The translations under genes and the position numbers were made by a program. Positions 1-5,524 of a DNA stretch of 9,457 bases are shown piece by piece. Location: the IMG/VR virus record IMGVR_UViG_2657245660_000018, one strand, 5' to 3'. The notes beneath the pieces are model-generated. The model was given only the letters and a program-made list of their open reading frames with translations, was not told the origin of the DNA and searched no databases. This stretch comes from a virus (taxonomy: Duplodnaviria > Heunggongvirae > Uroviricota > Caudoviricetes). Within the stretch, counting starts at the first letter, position 1. Each line of letters starts with the position of its first letter.

Positions 1-173
1 TGTCAGTTATCATCTTCGGTTACGGTTATCGGCAGAACGCCCTGCCGCTGACAAGAGCTTATTTGCCTGACCAATCTACTCCACATGATAGATAACTATC
101 ATTTATAACATTTCATTGATTAGTCTTTATTTTTCACTATGTTACAAATAACAACTCCGTCAAAAACAGCGAA

Positions 174-197
174 ATTAACTACACCATTAACTACACC
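174..197. repeat. perfect tandem direct repeat, 2 x 12 bp (ATTAACTACACC)
   Basis: Read directly: attaactacacc at 174-185 and again at 186-197. Confidence 0.85.
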
Positions 198-203
198 GTT
201 TCA

Positions 204-240
204 CGAACAATATCGAACAACCACGAACAAAGATCAACAC
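204..240. repeat. helically phased short direct repeats (CGAACAA x3 plus TCAACAC, 10-bp period)
   Basis: CGAACAA at 204-210, 214-220, 224-230 and related TCAACAC at 234-240; the spacing is exactly 10 bp. Confidence 0.75.
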
Positions 241-293
241 GCTTTAACCGTTATCATTTTCCGGCCATCCGTTATGAAGCTGGTGGATGTTCC

Positions 294-396
294 CCGATAT
301 GGGTATCCCCACCTACCTGGCTTTTTTTCCGGTTAAATGTTAATCAGGCTGGTGGCCTTTACATACCCTTGATCACGGTAATGATGATTCAGGTGC
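294..396. repeat. copy 1 of a ~100-bp direct-repeat module (degenerate hairpin plus 83-bp core)
   Basis: Core 314-396 matches 851-933 at 81 of 83 positions. The preceding CCCGATATGG hairpin (294-313) is degenerate in this copy. The copy ends in a second hairpin, TTTTCCCC-agt-GGGGTAAAA, at about 401-420. Confidence 0.8.
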
Positions 397-536
397 GTAC
401 CTTTTCCCCAGTGGGGTAAAAGCTCCAACCGTAACGATGTTCGTTGTGGTTGCCTTGATGGTCTGCGTGGTCATTATGACCATTCAGAATTTGAAGGGTG
501 ATGTTTCCGATCTCCTCAAATTGAGGATTGTGGAAG

Positions 537-549
537 AATCAATGGGTTA
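537..549 (+). promoter_or_regulatory. exact match to IHF core consensus WATCAANNNNTTR (AATCAATGGGTTA)
   Basis: Consensus match read directly. It is part of a recurring AATCAATGGGTTAG unit. Confidence 0.5.
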
Positions 550-590
550 GTCTTACTTTCCCAACATCCCCCAATGGGGGTTTTCGAAAT

Positions 591-603
591 AATCAATGGG
601 TTA
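591..603 (+). promoter_or_regulatory. exact match to IHF core consensus (AATCAATGGGTTA)
   Basis: Second copy of the AATCAATGGGTTAGG unit. It is flanked by the palindrome CCATAGTGCA-attt-TGCACTATGG (606-629). Confidence 0.5.
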
Positions 604-742
604 GGCCATAGTGCAATTTTGCACTATGGAACAATTCCAACCAGTTATCGGCATCAGGCCCACCAGCCAACGCAATTTTGCGCTTTGCTTTAATCTCAGT
701 AAGTTACCGCGCCAATTTCCGCAGTCTGTGGAAATTGGGAAG

Positions 743-755
743 AATCAACGGGTTA
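743..755 (+). promoter_or_regulatory. exact match to IHF core consensus (AATCAACGGGTTA)
   Basis: Third copy of the unit, same orientation. Confidence 0.5.
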
Positions 756-796
756 GGCTGGTTTCCCCGATGTTCGCCGCTGGCGAATTTCGAAAA

Positions 797-809
797 TATC
801 AACCAGTTA
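797..809 (+). promoter_or_regulatory. exact match to IHF core consensus (TATCAACCAGTTA)
   Basis: Related unit. A degenerate fifth copy (TTCCAACCAGTTAT) lies at 635-648. The hairpin TTCGCC-gct-GGCGAA and the palindrome ATTTCGAAAT lie just upstream (774-795). Confidence 0.45.
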
Positions 810-818
810 CCGCCGTAT

Positions 819-933
819 CCCGATATGGTGATCCCCATATCGAGATTGGATACCTGGCTTTTTTTCCGGTTAAACGTTAATCAGGCTGGTGGGCTTTACA
901 TACCCTTGATCACGGTAATGATGATTCAGGTGC
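819..933. repeat. copy 2 of the ~100-bp direct-repeat module (hairpin 819-844 plus 83-bp core 851-933)
   Basis: CCCGATATGG (819-828) pairs with CCATATCGAG (835-844) at 9 of 10 positions. The core is near-identical to 314-396. Confidence 0.8.
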
Positions 934-936
934 TTC

Positions 937-962
937 CCCGATATGGTGATCCCCATATCGGG
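937..962. repeat. inverted repeat / hairpin CCCGATATGG-tgatcc-CCATATCGGG
   Basis: Perfect 10-bp stem with 6-nt loop, 17 nt beyond the capsid-homologue stop codon. Same motif as 819-844. No U-tract follows on the minus strand, so it is not a canonical intrinsic terminator. Confidence 0.75.
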
Positions 963-978
963 ATAGATGCTGGAAAAA

Positions 979-1902
979 TCAGCTTTTCGCCAGAACGGTG
1001 ACGGCCTTATCGAGTTTTTGCCATCCGCAATAGGTGATTGCCCTGAACGCTGTAGCGTCATTCTGGAAAAGGCTAACCGCCCCTGATTCGGTTTTTATTA
1101 CCGCCTCATCAGTTGGGGTTATAACCGTGGCTTCAACGTTAATAATCAGCTTTTGAGCGTCTATCAGCATCATGCGATCCGCCTGTTCGCTCACAATTAC
1201 CGGTATTCTCAAAAGCTCTATCTGCCAGAACTCAGCATCAGTAAGCTGTAAGGCGTTTTCTACGGGCAATATTAGCGACGACGTGGAAAGCGTGTTACCG
1301 TTCGCTATGTGCTTTTTGAAAATCTCTATGAAGTTTTCGGCCTCATCAGCACCATTAAGCACGCCCTCAGGGGATACGCCAGCCACCTCCTGATCACTGG
1401 AAAGAAATTTTTTATCTATTTCTTTCACCGATTCCGATGTGATCAAGTCTCTGATCGCTGAATTTGTACCAGGGGTGCTAAATTTGATTAGCTCGTTATT
1501 CAGCATCACAATAGCGCCAAGTTTGCACAATTTTAGCGCACTTTCGTTTACTTCTCCCTCTTTGACAGGGATTTCTTCGGCTTCTTTAAGCCATTTACTA
1601 CCCTTGCCTGATATTGAATGCAATTTTGCGCCAAACGGAAGATTAAGCGCGCTGCTGATTAGCTTGCCTGGTACAGACTGCGAAAAAATATACTCGCCAA
1701 GCTCTCTTACTATCGGCTCTGCCACCAGCGACGGCATGTTATCCGTAGTCATTCTGTTGACGATGGATTTTTCAAGAAATTTCGATACTGCCGGATCATT
1801 TCTTTTCGTCATCTCTATAGCGTCAGCATGGCTAAATTTACACGATGCCAGCACGCTGGCGGCGCGAACTGCTGACACGCCTTTCATGTTTTTACAGATC
1901 AT
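979..1902 (-). CDS. HK97-fold major capsid protein homologue (307 aa); possibly a capsid-size-redirecting capsid paralogue
   Basis: ATG at 1902 preceded by GGAGGAGGAAG. Two stretches resemble conserved blocks of the HK97-type Phage_capsid family: NSAIRDLITSESVKEIDKKFLSSDQEVAGVSPEGVLNG, and ELLRIPVIVSEQ with a C-terminal AFRAITYCGW. This is recognised by eye, not by search. At 307 aa it is short for a capsid protein with an N-terminal delta domain. Confidence 0.7.
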   Translation of the reverse strand: MICKNMKGVSAVRAASVLASCKFSHADAIEMTKRNDPAVSKFLEKSIVNRMTTDNMPSLVAEPIVRELGEYIFSQSVPGKLISSALNLPFGAKLHSISGKGSKWLKEAEEIPVKEGEVNESALKLCKLGAIVMLNNELIKFSTPGTNSAIRDLITSESVKEIDKKFLSSDQEVAGVSPEGVLNGADEAENFIEIFKKHIANGNTLSTSSLILPVENALQLTDAEFWQIELLRIPVIVSEQADRMMLIDAQKLIINVEATVITPTDEAVIKTESGAVSLFQNDATAFRAITYCGWQKLDKAVTVLAKS

Positions 1903-2053
1903 CTTCTTCCTCCTCCTGGAAGCACGGGTTTAGTGTTTCGTGAAAATATGGCATCAGAACAGCGGCGGCCTGTAACCGTATTTCGGTCGACTGCTGCTTG
2001 TCGTTCATGATTTCCGTGAGTACATCAATAGGGTCTGTGATGTATTCGCTCAT
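1892..2053 (-). CDS. small hypothetical protein (53 aa, acidic C-terminus), not in the supplied ORF track
   Basis: ATG at 2051-2053 with GAGGT 7 nt upstream; translates to MSEYITDPIDVLTEIMNDKQQSTEIRLQAAAVLMPYFHETLNPCFQEEEEDDL. Its 3' end overlaps the capsid-homologue RBS and start. The RLQAAAVLMPY segment loosely recalls the C-terminal motif of some Terminase_2 small subunits. Confidence 0.4.
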   Translation of the reverse strand: MSEYITDPIDVLTEIMNDKQQSTEIRLQAAAVLMPYFHETLNPCFQEEEEDDL

Positions 2054-2064
2054 AGTTCGCTACC

Positions 2065-2553
2065 TCAGTGTTTTAAGTCTGTTGGTGGCTTAGGGATGGG
2101 GAACCGATTTGAGTAGACACTAGCGGCATTGAGTTTTTTAACCTCTTTTTTCCCAATGCTGCCGATCTTGCGGTGGGTGAACTGGGCCAGCTTAAACGCG
2201 GCATCTAAAGCCAGTTTTGGATCTGTGTCCATGTTGTCAATCAGTATCCTGCCCATTGCTTTGATGGGGTCGGGTAGGCCGTTATCCATCATCTCAATGG
2301 TGTTAATTGATGCCCGTTCCGGTGTAACTTTTTCGGTAACTTTCTTTGTAACTTTTTTCGGTTTTGTAACCTGAAAAGTTACATCAGAAGTTACAGCCTT
2401 AAGATACTTTTTCACCTCAGGATCGTTGGATAGCTGCCAGCCTTTAACCCTTGCGGTCTTTTCGCTGTATCCCGCATGTATAGCGGCTTCCGTGGGATTT
2501 GCGCCCCTTGATAACGCATCAGCAAACCGCTTTTTTTTGGTCGTTAATGCCAT
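2065..2553 (-). CDS. terS: terminase small subunit (TerS, Terminase_2-like N-terminal HTH), 162 aa
   Basis: The protein from the internal Met reads MALTTKKKRFADALSRGANPTEAAIHAGYSEKTARVKGWQLSNDPEVKKYLKA, which matches the TerS N-terminal DNA-binding signature (KKxRF...AAIxAGYSEKTA). GAGG lies 8 nt upstream of the ATG at 2551-2553. The track ORF begins at GTG 2694 and would add 47 residues of implausible composition. A low-complexity VTKPKKVTKKVTEKVT repeat follows the HTH. Confidence 0.8.
   Translation of the reverse strand: MALTTKKKRFADALSRGANPTEAAIHAGYSEKTARVKGWQLSNDPEVKKYLKAVTSDVTFQVTKPKKVTKKVTEKVTPERASINTIEMMDNGLPDPIKAMGRILIDNMDTDPKLALDAAFKLAQFTHRKIGSIGKKEVKKLNAASVYSNRFPIPKPPTDLKH
2324..2394. 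repeat. periodic GTAAC / GTTAC array inside terS (candidate pac or TerS-binding site)
   Basis: GTAAC at 2324, 2336, 2348 and 2366 (12, 12 and 18 bp apart), then inverted GTTAC at 2378 and 2390. Includes the palindrome TGTAAC-ctgaaaa-GTTACA. Confidence 0.6.
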
Positions 2554-2577
2554 GCAAAAACCTCGTTTTGAGGGGGT

Positions 2578-2601
2578 GTAACTTTTCGTGTAACTTTTTT
2601 G
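2578..2601. repeat. two more TGTAACTTTT direct repeats (12-bp spacing) in the terS leader
   Basis: tgtaacttttcg at 2578-2589 and tgtaactttttt at 2590-2601, 25 nt upstream of the terS ATG on the minus strand. Confidence 0.6.
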
Positions 2602-2671
2602 AAAAGCAAAATTTTCTACGAATGAGACGGGGGGCGGTGTCCAGGGTGATCGACTTTCCGGCCGGAACACT

Positions 2672-2680
2672 CCCCCCCCC
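2672..2680. repeat. homopolymeric tract, 9 x C (G9 on the coding strand)
   Basis: tccccccccc read directly at 2671-2680, between the stop of the 2684-2845 ORF and terS. It sits immediately after an in-frame ATG (2680-2682) of the extended terS reading frame. Confidence 0.9.
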
Positions 2681-2683
2681 ATG

Positions 2684-2845
2684 TCATTGCTCACCGAGTA
2701 ACGAGATCAGGCCTTCAACTTCATTACTCAGCTTGTTTATTCGTGTCTCAAGCTCTGCGATCTTTTCCATCAATGGCGCTATAGTGTCTCTTGTTTCCTC
2801 GCCAATGGCCTTAATGATGCTTGCCTCGCGTTCTGTGATAGCCAT
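2684..2845 (-). CDS. small hypothetical protein (53 aa, predicted helical / coiled-coil-like), not in the supplied ORF track
   Basis: ATG at 2843-2845 with GGTGAGG 8 nt upstream; translates to MAITEREASIIKAIGEETRDTIAPLMEKIAELETRINKLSNEVEGLISLLGEQ. It starts 3 nt after the stop of the upstream 64-aa gene, and its TGA stop is at 2684-2686. Confidence 0.5.
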   Translation of the reverse strand: MAITEREASIIKAIGEETRDTIAPLMEKIAELETRINKLSNEVEGLISLLGEQ

Positions 2846-2848
2846 TTG

Positions 2849-3043
2849 TTATGCCTCACCTGTTGCAATGCCCAGTCTTTCGCGTAACAGCACACGTGCA
2901 AGATGACCTATTGTTGGCGTGGCGGCTCTGCCGTATATACCAGCTTCATTCATCCGGCGAATAACATCGAATTGAAGTTTTTTAAGCTCGTTTAGGATCT
3001 CGTGATCAATCATCACGGTAGCGCTTTGCTTTATCTCTTCCAC
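2849..3043 (-). CDS. small hypothetical protein (64 aa), first gene of the packaging operon; possibly DNA-binding
   Basis: GTG start at 3041-3043 with a strong AGGAGG 7 nt upstream. An AT-rich putative promoter lies at 3060-3110 (TTGATT ... AATACT on the minus strand). No family recognised. Confidence 0.5.
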   Translation of the reverse strand: MEEIKQSATVMIDHEILNELKKLQFDVIRRMNEAGIYGRAATPTIGHLARVLLRERLGIATGEA

Positions 3044-3130
3044 TTTGTTTCCTCCTGATACTTATCATCGCATAATCAGTATTTTCGATAGATTATCATT
3101 AATCAACCATTTTTTAAGATATGAGAGATC

Positions 3131-3155
3131 GAAAAAAAGCCGGATTGCTCCGGCT
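3131..3155 (-). terminator. rho-independent terminator (minus-strand transcripts)
   Basis: Stem AGCCGGA (3138-3144) and TCCGGCT (3149-3155) with loop TTGC. On the minus strand it is followed by a U7 tract (plus-strand A-run 3131-3137). It lies 19 nt after the stop of the 3174-3482 gene. Confidence 0.8.
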
Positions 3156-3173
3156 ATGTGCTCACTCCTTCGG

Positions 3174-3482
3174 TTATTCTCCAGTGCTTTTAACGTTGAT
3201 GGTTGTTACCTGTTCCGCTTCTGCAATCTCCCGCTCTGTCAGCGTGGCAAAGTTTGCCGCCGCCGTGGTCATGAATGCGCTTATTAGTTCGGGATTCTCC
3301 TTCGCGTATCCTTCCCGTGTGTGGCGGTCTATAACTTTGATTGCCACCTTTAGGGAAAGCTCTGTCATGTCTAACGCTTTATATTTTTGCTGTGTTCTGT
3401 CTCTGCGCATTTTGGTCATTTGTCGCCCCTGATTCATGTTTTCGGTCGGCATGTTTGTTAAGTGATTTTGATGTATGCACAT
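3174..3482 (-). CDS. hypothetical protein (81-102 aa) downstream of the origin
   Basis: ORF from the track. The most plausible start is the ATG at 3417-3419 (AGGGG 6 nt upstream), giving 81 aa; the ATG at 3482 has a more distant G-rich stretch. No family recognised. Confidence 0.5.
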   Translation of the reverse strand: MCIHQNHLTNMPTENMNQGRQMTKMRRDRTQQKYKALDMTELSLKVAIKVIDRHTREGYAKENPELISAFMTTAAANFATLTEREIAEAEQVTTINVKSTGE

Positions 3483-3530
3483 TTATTTTTACCCCCCTCG
3501 TTTAAAAAGTTTTAGGTTGTGGTGCACCTC

Positions 3531-3755
3531 CTCTACCTCTTCTACCTAATCATCTTTCAGGTCAGTAATGGCGCGGCTTTCAGATGGGTAGAGGACTTTT
3601 CGTGGCCCTCTACCCATCCTCTACCCGCCCCTCACAAACGACCTTAATCATGGTAGAGGGGGTAGAGGGGTTTTATTAGCCTTCTACCTATCCCTCTACC
3701 CACTTATCATGTTGAATAATATGCGTTTATTTCATTCAGGTAGATGGGGTAGAGG
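3531..3755. repeat. iteron array, candidate replication origin (11 copies of GGTAGAGG / CTCTACC in alternating orientation)
   Basis: CTCTACC at 3531, 3540, 3608, 3619, 3682 and 3694; GGTAGAGG at 3587, 3652, 3661, 3739 (GGTAGAT variant) and 3748. Paired copies are 9-12 bp apart. AT-rich stretches flank the array (3481-3515, 3761-3780). It lies immediately 3' of the primase gene. Confidence 0.75.
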
Positions 3756-3769
3756 GCTTTTACAAAAAA

Positions 3770-5524
3770 TTATAAAAACGCGTCACAATCATCCGTTGTA
3801 ATTGCGTTGGTCTGCGTTACTCCCTTAACTTTTCGCGTAATATATTCATGTCCGTAAACTTTCGCCGCTGGCTTCATGGCCTTGCTGAAATCAGCCACGT
3901 TTAGCGGCTTGCTTCTTCCTGCGTATGCCATAAACGCCAGATAGACGCGGTAAAGGCTGTTTCTGGTCGTGTACTTCACGGAATCGCCACCGCCACCCAT
4001 CATCAGGCCGCGCGCTTCCTCCAGAAAATTCAGGAACTGGCAAAACTCAATAACCGGATCTGTCTGTTGCTTTATCGCCAGTGCTTCATCACCGTCGCGC
4101 TGTTCCAGTAATAAAGCCCGTGCCTTTTCAGGGTCAGCAAAATTAGCCAGCAAGCGGCGGATAATCACAGGGATTTCAGCCGCGACCTTCTCCGGCAAAT
4201 CCTTGTCCTTTTCTGCCTCGCTAACGATATTGTCAAAGCGAAAAATAACCCGACGACGTGCCACGCCTCCGGCCCGTTCGGTGAATATCATCGGGTTGTT
4301 GTTGGTCGCCAGCACCACCGCCCTGATTACCGCCGTGAAACGCTTTTCATATTTCGGGTTAATTTCCACGGGGTCGCCGCCCGTGATTTTCTTGATGCCC
4401 GTTCCTTCGCCTGTATATTTCGGCTGGTCAGCCAGGACGATAAGACGACTCCCGACAACCTGCGCGCGCCCTCCTGCATCATCGAGTGATGTCATTTCAG
4501 CGCTTACCGTGTTCTGTTTCCCTGCCAGAAGGCTGGCTATGTGCGTGAATGTACTTTTACCGCTACCGCCGTCTCCGGTGGCCTCAATAAACATCTGCCA
4601 GTCGTACCGGTTCGCCATAATCATGTACAGCGCGGCACATATACGCATCATCTTGCGCGGGTCTTTTCCGGCTGCGTGATCAAGCCATTTGTGAAAGTTT
4701 GGCGCGTTGTCGCGAATGTTCTCCCCAGGTGCTGGTGGCGTGTACTCAATGCCGTTGTGCGTGGTGATCCAGTTCTCCGGCGTGTGCGGGGAAAATTCCC
4801 CCGTTTTCAGGTCAAGCGCACCATTGGCGAACGGCAGCAAATCGCAGGACGGCTCCCCCATTGGTTCGGCAATAACTTTTAACGCTTCAACGGCGTTATT
4901 GATTACGCGCTTGCTGAAAGTGGCCCTGTGCTCTGAATAGATCGCCACCATTTCGCGGCTAAGTTCCATTGTGCTGACCGGACACCATAACCCGCCGCGC
5001 CATACGTGAACGATTTCACTTTCAGGATGTACGCAAACGCCATCAAAGCGATCGGAAAGCAGCTGAGCGCGTTCACTGTCCGCCATCTGCGAAAGTTGCG
5101 CCTTTTGCTTTACCGGAAGCTCAACGAACAGACCTTCAGAAAGATTCTGGCGCTCACGGGCCAGATATTCGCGCCAGTTCTCCACCTCCTGAACGTGCAT
5201 TCCCTCAGGGTAAAAATTTGCATCCTGTACACCTGCCGCCGCCAGCTTCTGACCAATCGCCTTTATCATTACTGGCGCAAGATATCCGGCCCTGAATATG
5301 CGTACTGATTTTCGGCCTTCCGGCACAATTTGCAGCTTATCCAGTTCGGATAACTGCTGATCCCCAAGCCACACAGGAGGCTCATTATCTCCGGCTATAC
5401 GCGCGTCATGTTCCTGCCACTGTTTTGCATGTGCCCACGCATCACTACCCGCGAAAATAATTACCTCTGTGTCTTTGTGTTTTATTCCGCGTGACTGCTG
5501 TTTTACGTTCGGTGCAAGTTTCAT
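3770..5524 (-). CDS. replicative primase-helicase, P4 / D5 family C-terminal NTPase domain (584 aa)
   Basis: Walker A GDGGSGKST, followed by RLIVLADQP and ITGGDPVEINPKYEK as in the phage/plasmid primase P4-family C-terminal domain. The N-terminal ~250 aa is not assigned. GGGGT lies 6 nt upstream of the ATG, which overlaps the stop of the upstream gene (ATGA at 5521-5524). Confidence 0.85.
   Translation of the reverse strand: MKLAPNVKQQSRGIKHKDTEVIIFAGSDAWAHAKQWQEHDARIAGDNEPPVWLGDQQLSELDKLQIVPEGRKSVRIFRAGYLAPVMIKAIGQKLAAAGVQDANFYPEGMHVQEVENWREYLARERQNLSEGLFVELPVKQKAQLSQMADSERAQLLSDRFDGVCVHPESEIVHVWRGGLWCPVSTMELSREMVAIYSEHRATFSKRVINNAVEALKVIAEPMGEPSCDLLPFANGALDLKTGEFSPHTPENWITTHNGIEYTPPAPGENIRDNAPNFHKWLDHAAGKDPRKMMRICAALYMIMANRYDWQMFIEATGDGGSGKSTFTHIASLLAGKQNTVSAEMTSLDDAGGRAQVVGSRLIVLADQPKYTGEGTGIKKITGGDPVEINPKYEKRFTAVIRAVVLATNNNPMIFTERAGGVARRRVIFRFDNIVSEAEKDKDLPEKVAAEIPVIIRRLLANFADPEKARALLLEQRDGDEALAIKQQTDPVIEFCQFLNFLEEARGLMMGGGGDSVKYTTRNSLYRVYLAFMAYAGRSKPLNVADFSKAMKPAAKVYGHEYITRKVKGVTQTNAITTDDCDAFL

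Follow-up and report, generated by a model that had tools for sequence, protein, structure and literature searches.

Redirection of helper packaging by satellites is established for the pac-type SaPIs, which use a TerS of their own, for the lambda-dependent Escherichia coli PICIs, which use Rpp, and for satellites that copy the cos site of the helper. TerS-binding repeats beside cos and satellites encoding their own TerS are both already known. In phage lambda, the repeats of cosB (R3-I1-R2-R1, bound by gpNu1), one of which is inverted, set the packaging specificity (PMC9026076; PMC6092414), and in phage HK97, the TerS site, of which an A-tract is a part, lies 15–29 bp downstream of the cos cut (PMC11331095). 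In the literature that we searched, no packaging site was described for TerS-encoding enterobacterial PICIs, and neither the GTTAC/GTTAAC elements analyzed below nor the TerS sites of the Stx phages that carry the latter were described.

Here we analyzed a stretch of DNA of 9457 nt (the window), for which the original prediction had proposed that short GTAAC repeats inside terS and in its leader form a pac site. We assign a probability of about 0.65 to the following reading: the repeats act as the cosB, or recognition part, within the cos site of an island that depends on a helper, and are predicted to be the sites for the island's own TerS. The combination that would be new is an HNH-type cos core in common with the helper and a private, one-base-different array that is mostly embedded in the coding sequence of the TerS linker.

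The arrangement is like that of lambda cosB in that several short repeats, predicted here to bind TerS, lie in mixed orientation downstream of the nick, before and into the TerS gene, which is a resemblance of mechanism and not of family membership. Nu1 is a winged-helix protein whereas the island TerS belongs to Terminase_2, lambda has a 12-nt 5' overhang whereas homology points to a 10-nt 3' overhang in the island, the island system would be HNH-dependent, most of its copies are inside the TerS coding sequence, and neither a Nu1-type winged-helix TerS nor a lambda cosN was found in it. HK97 (HNH gp74) has the hnh-cos-terS-terL order that is seen in the phage relatives of the island, a 3' overhang of 10 nt, as predicted for the island, and, a few tens of bp past the cut, a TerS site in which a specific base contact is joined to an A-tract (PMC11331095), and the position and conservation of the first island element would fit such a site; however, HK97 has one 15-bp site whereas the island has eight elements in two clusters, and HK97 TerS lies outside Terminase_2.

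Among satellites, the pac-type SaPIs likewise combine a satellite TerS homologue and its own site with the TerL of the helper (10.1101/2022.09.08.507074), but they are headful, Gram-positive and HNH-independent, whereas the present island keeps the helper cos core and changes the adjacent repeats only. The Rpp-type island EcCICFT073 is also an E. coli PICI with helper-like cosN and cosQ, its own cosB and an island-encoded recognition protein (PMC6739421); Rpp differs in being lambda-Nu1-like and in acting as a heterocomplex with the phage TerS, whereas the TerS of the present island is a Terminase_2 protein of full length. Rpp-type islands are also reported to lack repeated R sequences (PMC9026076), in contrast to the obvious repeats seen here. 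SaPIbov5 and the cf-PICIs exploit or copy HNH-dependent cos packaging. SaPIbov5, however, has only the helper cos site and no TerS, and the cf-PICIs encode HNH, TerS, TerL and a complete capsid, whereas the present island encodes TerS, a 53-aa ORF resembling the TerS core and one capsid-like protein.

A PICI-type island between clpS and cspD

In E. coli O157:H7, an insertion of ~9.5 kb that lies between clpS and cspD is 100% identical to the window, and copies of the island with at least 95% identity were present in 220 of 5426 complete E. coli genomes. Its minus-strand genes comprise an integrase, an AlpA regulator, a D5/P4-type primase, small ORFs, terS, the 53-aa ORF and a capsid-like gene, with Pfam matches in the window to AlpA, D5_N primase, Terminase_2 and Phage_capsid; the integrase call and the genomic context were taken from RefSeq annotation. 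The capsid-like gene (979–1902, minus strand; Pfam Phage_capsid, phrog_617) is the last gene of the island packaging module. By ORF and Pfam checks, the window genes include no portal, TerL, tail, lysis or HNH gene, and no Rfam family was found in the window.

The core gene set of type A PICIs in SatelliteFinder consists of an integrase, an AlpA-type regulator, a primase-replicase, a capsid-like gene and terS, without tail, lysis, portal or TerL genes (PMC10085698). This set is present in the window, and the island is, as judged by gene content, a PICI-type satellite. Two assignments to described islands were considered and rejected, namely EcCIEDL933, a capsid-forming PICI that itself encodes HNH, TerL and a portal, and the Rpp type, as Rpp is lambda-Nu1-like and the island TerS is of a different protein family (Pfam Terminase_2).

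TerS and an adjacent ORF resembling its core

The product of terS (2065–2553, minus strand; 162 aa) matched phrog_641 along its entire length and, in Pfam, Terminase_2 along residues 1–57. In an AlphaFold model based on the family alignment, helices were confident at residues 5–56 and 96–126, which divides the predicted protein into a helical DNA-binding domain (residues 1–56), a disordered linker with pLDDT below 50 and no secondary structure (57–84) and a helical core (96–126). The helix-turn-helix gave a weak match to the structures of SF6/SPP1 G1P. Compared with the TerS of Stx-converting lambdoid phages, the island TerS was 44–47% identical over the full length, and the two TerS types had 58% identity when the DNA-binding domains were compared, 6% for the linkers and 70% for the cores. 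Both types have a near-identical predicted recognition helix (GYS.KTARVKG.QL); its sole consistent difference is at residue 39 (window 2437–2439, minus strand), which is W, W, C, C and Y in proteins of the type associated with GTTAC and S, S and S in those associated with GTTAAC. Residue 39 is a candidate specificity determinant, and with so few lineages it is to be taken as a lead only.

Directly after terS lies an ORF of 53 aa (1892–2053, minus strand) that resembles the TerS core domain only. It matched phrog_641 at core positions 89–125 alone (E = 3.5e-7) and the TerS core of a Kosakonia phage with 38% identity over 32 aa (E = 4e-8), while BLASTP gave no match to the island TerS or to the TerS of phage 2851. 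ORFs of 50–53 aa occupy the equivalent position in four related loci (L012, L013, L014 and L231). Since the ORF has no DNA-binding domain, its product could possibly act as an interference factor, that is, a decoy or poison subunit for the helper TerS, by analogy with Ppi or Rpp.

cos core and predicted cut

Upstream of terS, the window carries a cos core of 20 nt, GGACACCGCCCCCCGTCTCA (2623–2642, minus strand), which is identical to a part of the hnh-terS spacer of the Stx2c phage 2851 and is kept in all related loci. Within this core, CGCCCCCCGT (2627–2636, minus strand) is the homologue of the 10-nt 3' cohesive end CGCCCCCCCT, which was mapped by PhageTerm in phage Lys8385Vzw (PMC7946995); the record of this phage, MT225100, ends with ...GGACACCGCCCCCCCT and starts with CTCACGCAGAG.... 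A defined cut sequence with a 10-nt 3' end, as in HNH-type cos sites, is thereby assigned to the island by homology only. Positions below are numbered from the predicted cut, in which +1 is window 2626, the first base after CGCCCCCCGT, and numbers rise towards terS. From this cut, packaging is predicted to run to lower window coordinates, towards terS.

In four phage relatives (L002, L009, L135 and L162), cos is located between the HNH gene and terS-terL, and the packaging modules of Stx-converting lambdoid phages have the order hnh-terS-terL, as in HK97-type HNH-dependent cos phages. The hnh-terS spacer of phage 2851 and the island leader have in common not only the 20-mer but also a G-run. 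This run of nine G residues (2672–2680, minus strand) lies ~45 nt upstream of the predicted cut, is found in every lineage, phage or island, and may be a cosQ-like element or a contact for TerL/HNH. The G9 run is complementary to the C-run of the cohesive end; for a hairpin of the G-run and the C-run across the cos core, the single-strand fold was no better than that of shuffled sequences (z = −0.03). A search of public contigs for ends at the predicted cut gave internal matches only.

A second sequence reminiscent of a cohesive end, GGGCGGCGACCC at window 4371–4382 (minus strand), has 11 of 12 bases of the lambda cohesive end. It lies inside the primase ORF (...ITGGDPVEI...), far from terS and with no lambda-like flanks evident, and is probably a coincidence of coding sequence.

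Eight copies of an 11-bp element downstream of the cut

The positions given in the original prediction were all correct: on the plus strand of the window, GTAAC occurs at 2324, 2336, 2348, 2366, 2578 and 2590, and GTTAC at 2378 and 2390, with spacings of 12, 12, 18, 12 and 12 bp within terS and 12 bp in the leader. A pattern-free repeat search recovered these families and also matched the leader to the internal array. Exact copies of the 10-mer TGTAACTTTT stand at 2323, 2347, 2374 (minus strand), 2577 and 2589 and nowhere else in the 9457 nt; the copy at 2386 (minus strand) has one mismatch and that at 2335 has two.

These units are copies of an 11-bp element, AAAAGTTACAC, of which the island has eight, arranged from +29 to +305 as two direct, two inverted and four direct copies (GTTAC/GTAAC at +33 and +45, inverted at +233 and +245, direct at +257, +275, +287 and +299; terS starts at +74). 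Both leader elements have the sequence AAAAGTTACAC on the minus strand (2588–2598, +29 to +39, and 2576–2586, +41 to +51). The inner cluster (+229 to +305) begins ~180 bp past the leader pair, in the part of terS that encodes the disordered linker. It opens with two inverted elements on the plus strand, AGAAGTTACAG (2386–2396) and AAAAGTTACAT (2374–2384), each of which is read in terS as Val-Thr (GTA ACT), and continues on the minus strand with four direct elements: TCAGGTTACAA, which has a weak A-tract (2364–2374, +253 to +263), AAAAGTTACAA, which encodes K-K-V-T (2346–2356, +271 to +281), GAAAGTTACCG (2334–2344, +283 to +293), which together with its neighbour is absent in variant L230, and a further AAAAGTTACAC (2322–2332, +295 to +305). 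As had been pointed out with the prediction, the internal array also encodes the TerS repeat ...AVTSDVTFQVTKPKKVTKKVTEKVT....

Eight GTWAC in 280 nt were reached in none of 2000 dinucleotide-preserving shuffles (maximum 6, mean 2.5). Val-Thr is always encoded by GTNACN, and 12 bp equal four codons. When the protein was fixed and synonymous codons were resampled according to island usage, six GTWAC were unremarkable (null mean 4.0, P = 0.11), and the bare pentamer was rejected as in-gene evidence. The 7-mer AAGTTAC/GTAACTT occurred five times in terS against 0.82 expected, a number reached in 0 of 20000 codon resamplings. Because recent slippage can copy codons too, only diverged relatives and non-coding DNA can decide the matter.

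Conservation in position, sequence and codon choice

Five other lineages, with TerS proteins 54–62% identical to that of the island, were available for comparison, giving about six partly independent lineages in all. They comprise two E. coli variants (L007, with the first element at +33 and the terS start at +228; L229, +31 and +67), a Hafnia phage (L009, +34 and +69), a Salmonella island (L011, +34 and +69) and a metagenomic lineage (L013, +35 and +67). The leader element was thus located at +31 to +35 from the cos core in all six lineages, while its distance from the start codon ranged from ~30 to ~195 nt; its position is tied to the cos core and not to the start codon. The second cluster was also present in 6 of 6 lineages. 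It consists of one or two GTAACT in inverted orientation and, after them, two to four direct AAAAGTTACA, and it lies at about +223 to +300, except in the long-leader lineage L007, where it is further downstream, to about +460. The long leader of L007 contains extra copies of the element, and pairs with a 12-bp spacing occur in non-coding DNA both in the window (+33/+45) and in L007 (+180/+192).

All 33 aligned sites gave the consensus AAAAGTTACAC, and this did not change when they were taken in three groups, namely 11 sites in non-coding DNA, 14 coding sites in forward orientation (K-K-V-T) and 8 in reverse (V-T-S/F). Codons were aligned for five lineages; at columns with an invariant residue, pairwise codon identity was 0.89 in the motif versus 0.51 outside, and a single codon was used across the five lineages in 5 of 7 motif columns versus 8 of 47 others (Fisher one-sided P = 0.006, a test that rests on the 7 motif columns). 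Codon choice was specific to position, in that the early Val-Thr was always GTA-ACT, forming the inverted element, and the later ones were always GTT-ACA/C. The 7-mer was 135 times denser in the cos-proximal region (320–470 nt per locus) than elsewhere, with 30 copies in 2070 nt versus 5 in 46562 nt over six loci. Close relatives differed by whole 12-bp units; L230, for instance, has two units fewer but retains both leader elements, both inverted ones and two direct copies. We argue from this that the DNA element is the selected feature and is accommodated by a tolerant linker. The Hafnia locus L009, which encodes HNH, TerS, TerL and a protease-capsid fusion, is a true phage module, and it has the same element layout, so the element belongs to the TerS type and not to satellites as such.

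Two of the E. coli variants differ from the island in neighbouring genes. L007 has an HNH-like gene just upstream of cos (3348–3836) and would be a satellite with its own HNH, and in L229 a type I restriction-modification system (5623–10474) follows terS in place of the capsid-like gene. As for the searches, a protein-based scan of species-representative genomes yielded no relatives, a scan of viral contigs yielded only near-identical island copies and Stx-type phages, and a DNA pattern scan for the cos core over 596 Gb, in which the pattern was too loose, returned 120 stretches, with L135 and L162 as the only real TerS loci. A variant pattern in L218, a contig of 4x coverage, was discarded on account of A/T errors creating stop codons.

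Element type follows TerS type in candidate helpers

Phage 2851 carries GTTAAC at +34, +42, +110, +133 and +148, all within its 230-nt leader, and no island 7-mers were found in its 6.5 kb. Phages of Kosakonia and Enterobacter have a single GTTAAC at +42, which overlaps the terS start, and no island 7-mers. Conversely, GTTAAC is absent from the island up to a distance of 420 nt from cos. When read on the same strand, the island element TGTAACTTTT and the phage element ATGTTAACTG are one base apart in the core, and the type of motif tracked the type of TerS in all eight to nine loci examined. The packaging module of the Stx type was present in 1253 of 5426 E. coli genomes, in up to seven copies per genome, and the island coexists with several such modules in one chromosome, for example in NZ_CP018252.2. 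Stx-type prophages are candidate helpers.

Discussion

Since a phage with the same core has mapped cohesive ends and the island core lies 33 nt upstream of the first repeat, the island system appears to be of the cos type (HNH/HK97-like), with the repeats as a cosB-like part of the cos site, and it would need to borrow HNH and TerL. In the mechanism that we propose, the island has retained the cleavage core of the resident Stx-type lambdoid phages, including the 10-nt end at 2627–2636. The island TerS would bind the elements, most likely via its N-terminal helix-turn-helix domains, its core, which is ~70% identical to that of the phage TerS, would recruit the TerL and HNH of the helper, these would cut at the common core, and island DNA would be packaged towards terS. 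The helper GTTAAC elements at equivalent positions suggest that the cutting machinery is common and the recognition step separate. The analysis itself shows how the sequence is organized, that this organization is conserved, that codon choice is biased and that motif and TerS type go together; TerS as the binding protein, the identity of the helper and the lack of cross-reaction between the two recognition systems are our inferences. A counterpoint is that the near-identical recognition helices of both TerS types do not account for GTTAC versus GTTAAC.

Four other explanations have to be weighed against the cosB reading. Headful packaging from a pac site inside terS, as in P22, SPP1 and the pac-type SaPIs, would be in keeping with a TerS that matches Terminase_2 and has a helix-turn-helix weakly matching SF6/SPP1 G1P, to which the protein is related, and with the location of recognition sequences inside or into the TerS gene in both phages, since P22 has its pac within the TerS gene and TerS contacts SPP1 DNA at several points (PMC9611059). 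P22 and SPP1 are without unique ends, however, and such a system should have neither an HNH gene nor a cos core, whereas all phage relatives of the island have the hnh-terS-terL order, the cos core is conserved in the island, defined 3' cohesive ends are on record for a phage with this core, and the first repeat keeps a fixed distance from the core. We regard headful packaging as very improbable, and of the proposed pac site only one half survives: a DNA-level element tied to packaging and to the TerS type is upheld by non-coding conservation at a fixed distance from cos, by codon choice and by the different motif that accompanies a different TerS, while the headful part gives way to the HNH-terS-terL relatives, the cos core and the mapped cohesive ends. 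The repeats might instead be a property of the protein, a low-complexity KKVT linker expanded by in-frame slippage of 12 bp, with an incidental DNA motif and coincidental leader copies. The period of four codons, the GTNAC that Val-Thr enforces, the P = 0.11 of the pentamer given the protein and the differing number of units among close relatives all agree with this, and part of the internal array could indeed have arisen by in-frame 12-bp slippage. A product of slippage alone would nevertheless consist of coding-only repeats, their period divisible by 3 and their synonymous sites free, whereas the same 11-mer stands in the non-coding leaders of six lineages at +31 to +35, the 12-bp spacing recurs in non-coding DNA, position-specific codons are kept at 54–62% protein identity, the inverted copies reproduce the motif in another codon context, and a linker predicted to be disordered is expected to be under weak constraint at the protein level. 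The chance that slippage explains the repeats is accordingly small in our estimate, if a shade above that of headful packaging.

Somewhat less remote, but still improbable, is a regulatory operator through which TerS, another regulator or a host protein controls transcription or translation of the packaging operon. In the lineages with short leaders, the leader element lies 30–40 nt upstream of the start codon, near the ribosome-binding site, where binding could affect expression. On the other hand, no sigma-70-like promoter was found in 1850–3600, the first element of L007 is ~195 nt from the start codon and yet +33 from cos, most copies are 160–230 nt inside the coding region, and the element type tracks the TerS type. 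For the same reasons, namely a distance fixed to cos and not to the start codon and the lack of a sigma-70-like promoter nearby, we do not retain the suggestion that the leader copy serves autoregulation; for a secondary effect of TerS binding on expression, which is possible, we found no support. Finally, the elements may be packaging signals that are read not by the helix-turn-helix of the island TerS but by the HNH, TerL or TerS of the helper, or by the 53-aa TerS-core protein in a complex. The near-identical recognition helices would allow the specificity determinant to sit elsewhere, and E. coli islands of the Rpp type obtain specificity from a heterocomplex with the phage TerS (PMC6739421). 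Motif type nevertheless equals TerS type in all eight to nine loci, including true phages without the 53-aa ORF, and we consider another reader unlikely.

Returning to the cosB reading, a more far-reaching form of it, which we put forward tentatively and hold to be rather doubtful as a whole, is that island and helper have orthogonal specificities on one common core. A single base (TGTAAC versus TGTTAAC) would decide whose DNA is packaged, with residue 39 (W/C/Y versus S) as the candidate determinant within the near-identical TerS helix-turn-helix domains that read it; the array, most of which lies in the coding sequence for the linker of its own reader TerS, would dictate the Val-Thr repeats of that linker; and the 53-aa ORF, which has no DNA-binding domain, would be a decoy that poisons the helper TerS ring. 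A common cos core with a private AAAAGTTACAC array makes a prediction that is testable at a single base.

If correct, the cosB reading would amount to a compact code for the specificity of cos terminases of the HNH type, among which, to our knowledge, the single HK97 site is the only one known. It would also point to the prophages that mobilise the island in Shiga-toxin-producing E. coli and supply parts for orthogonal cosmid or transducing-particle systems. In addition, the array would be an example of a cis-acting DNA signal that shapes the sequence of an overlapping protein.

Other features of the island

A hairpin followed by a T-run, resembling a terminator, is located at window 3138–3155 (minus strand), with the primase region on one side and the small ORFs ahead of cos and terS on the other, and an ORF under 1900–2900 is annotated as 'antitermination protein NusG' in one RefSeq genome. 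Together, these two observations hint at control of the packaging module by antitermination.

A metagenome contig of 12840 nt with a coverage of 175 (L210) carries a terS and capsid-like region 96% identical to that of the island and differs in other parts; by terminal overlap it was not circular. Beyond the capsid-like gene, window 1–1000 is built of repeats without convincing ORFs, including an 88-nt direct repeat at 314–401 and 851–938 (95% identical) and 27-nt palindromic units at 816–842 and 939–965. Possible identities for these repeats are REP-like elements or what is left of the island end or attachment region by clpS.
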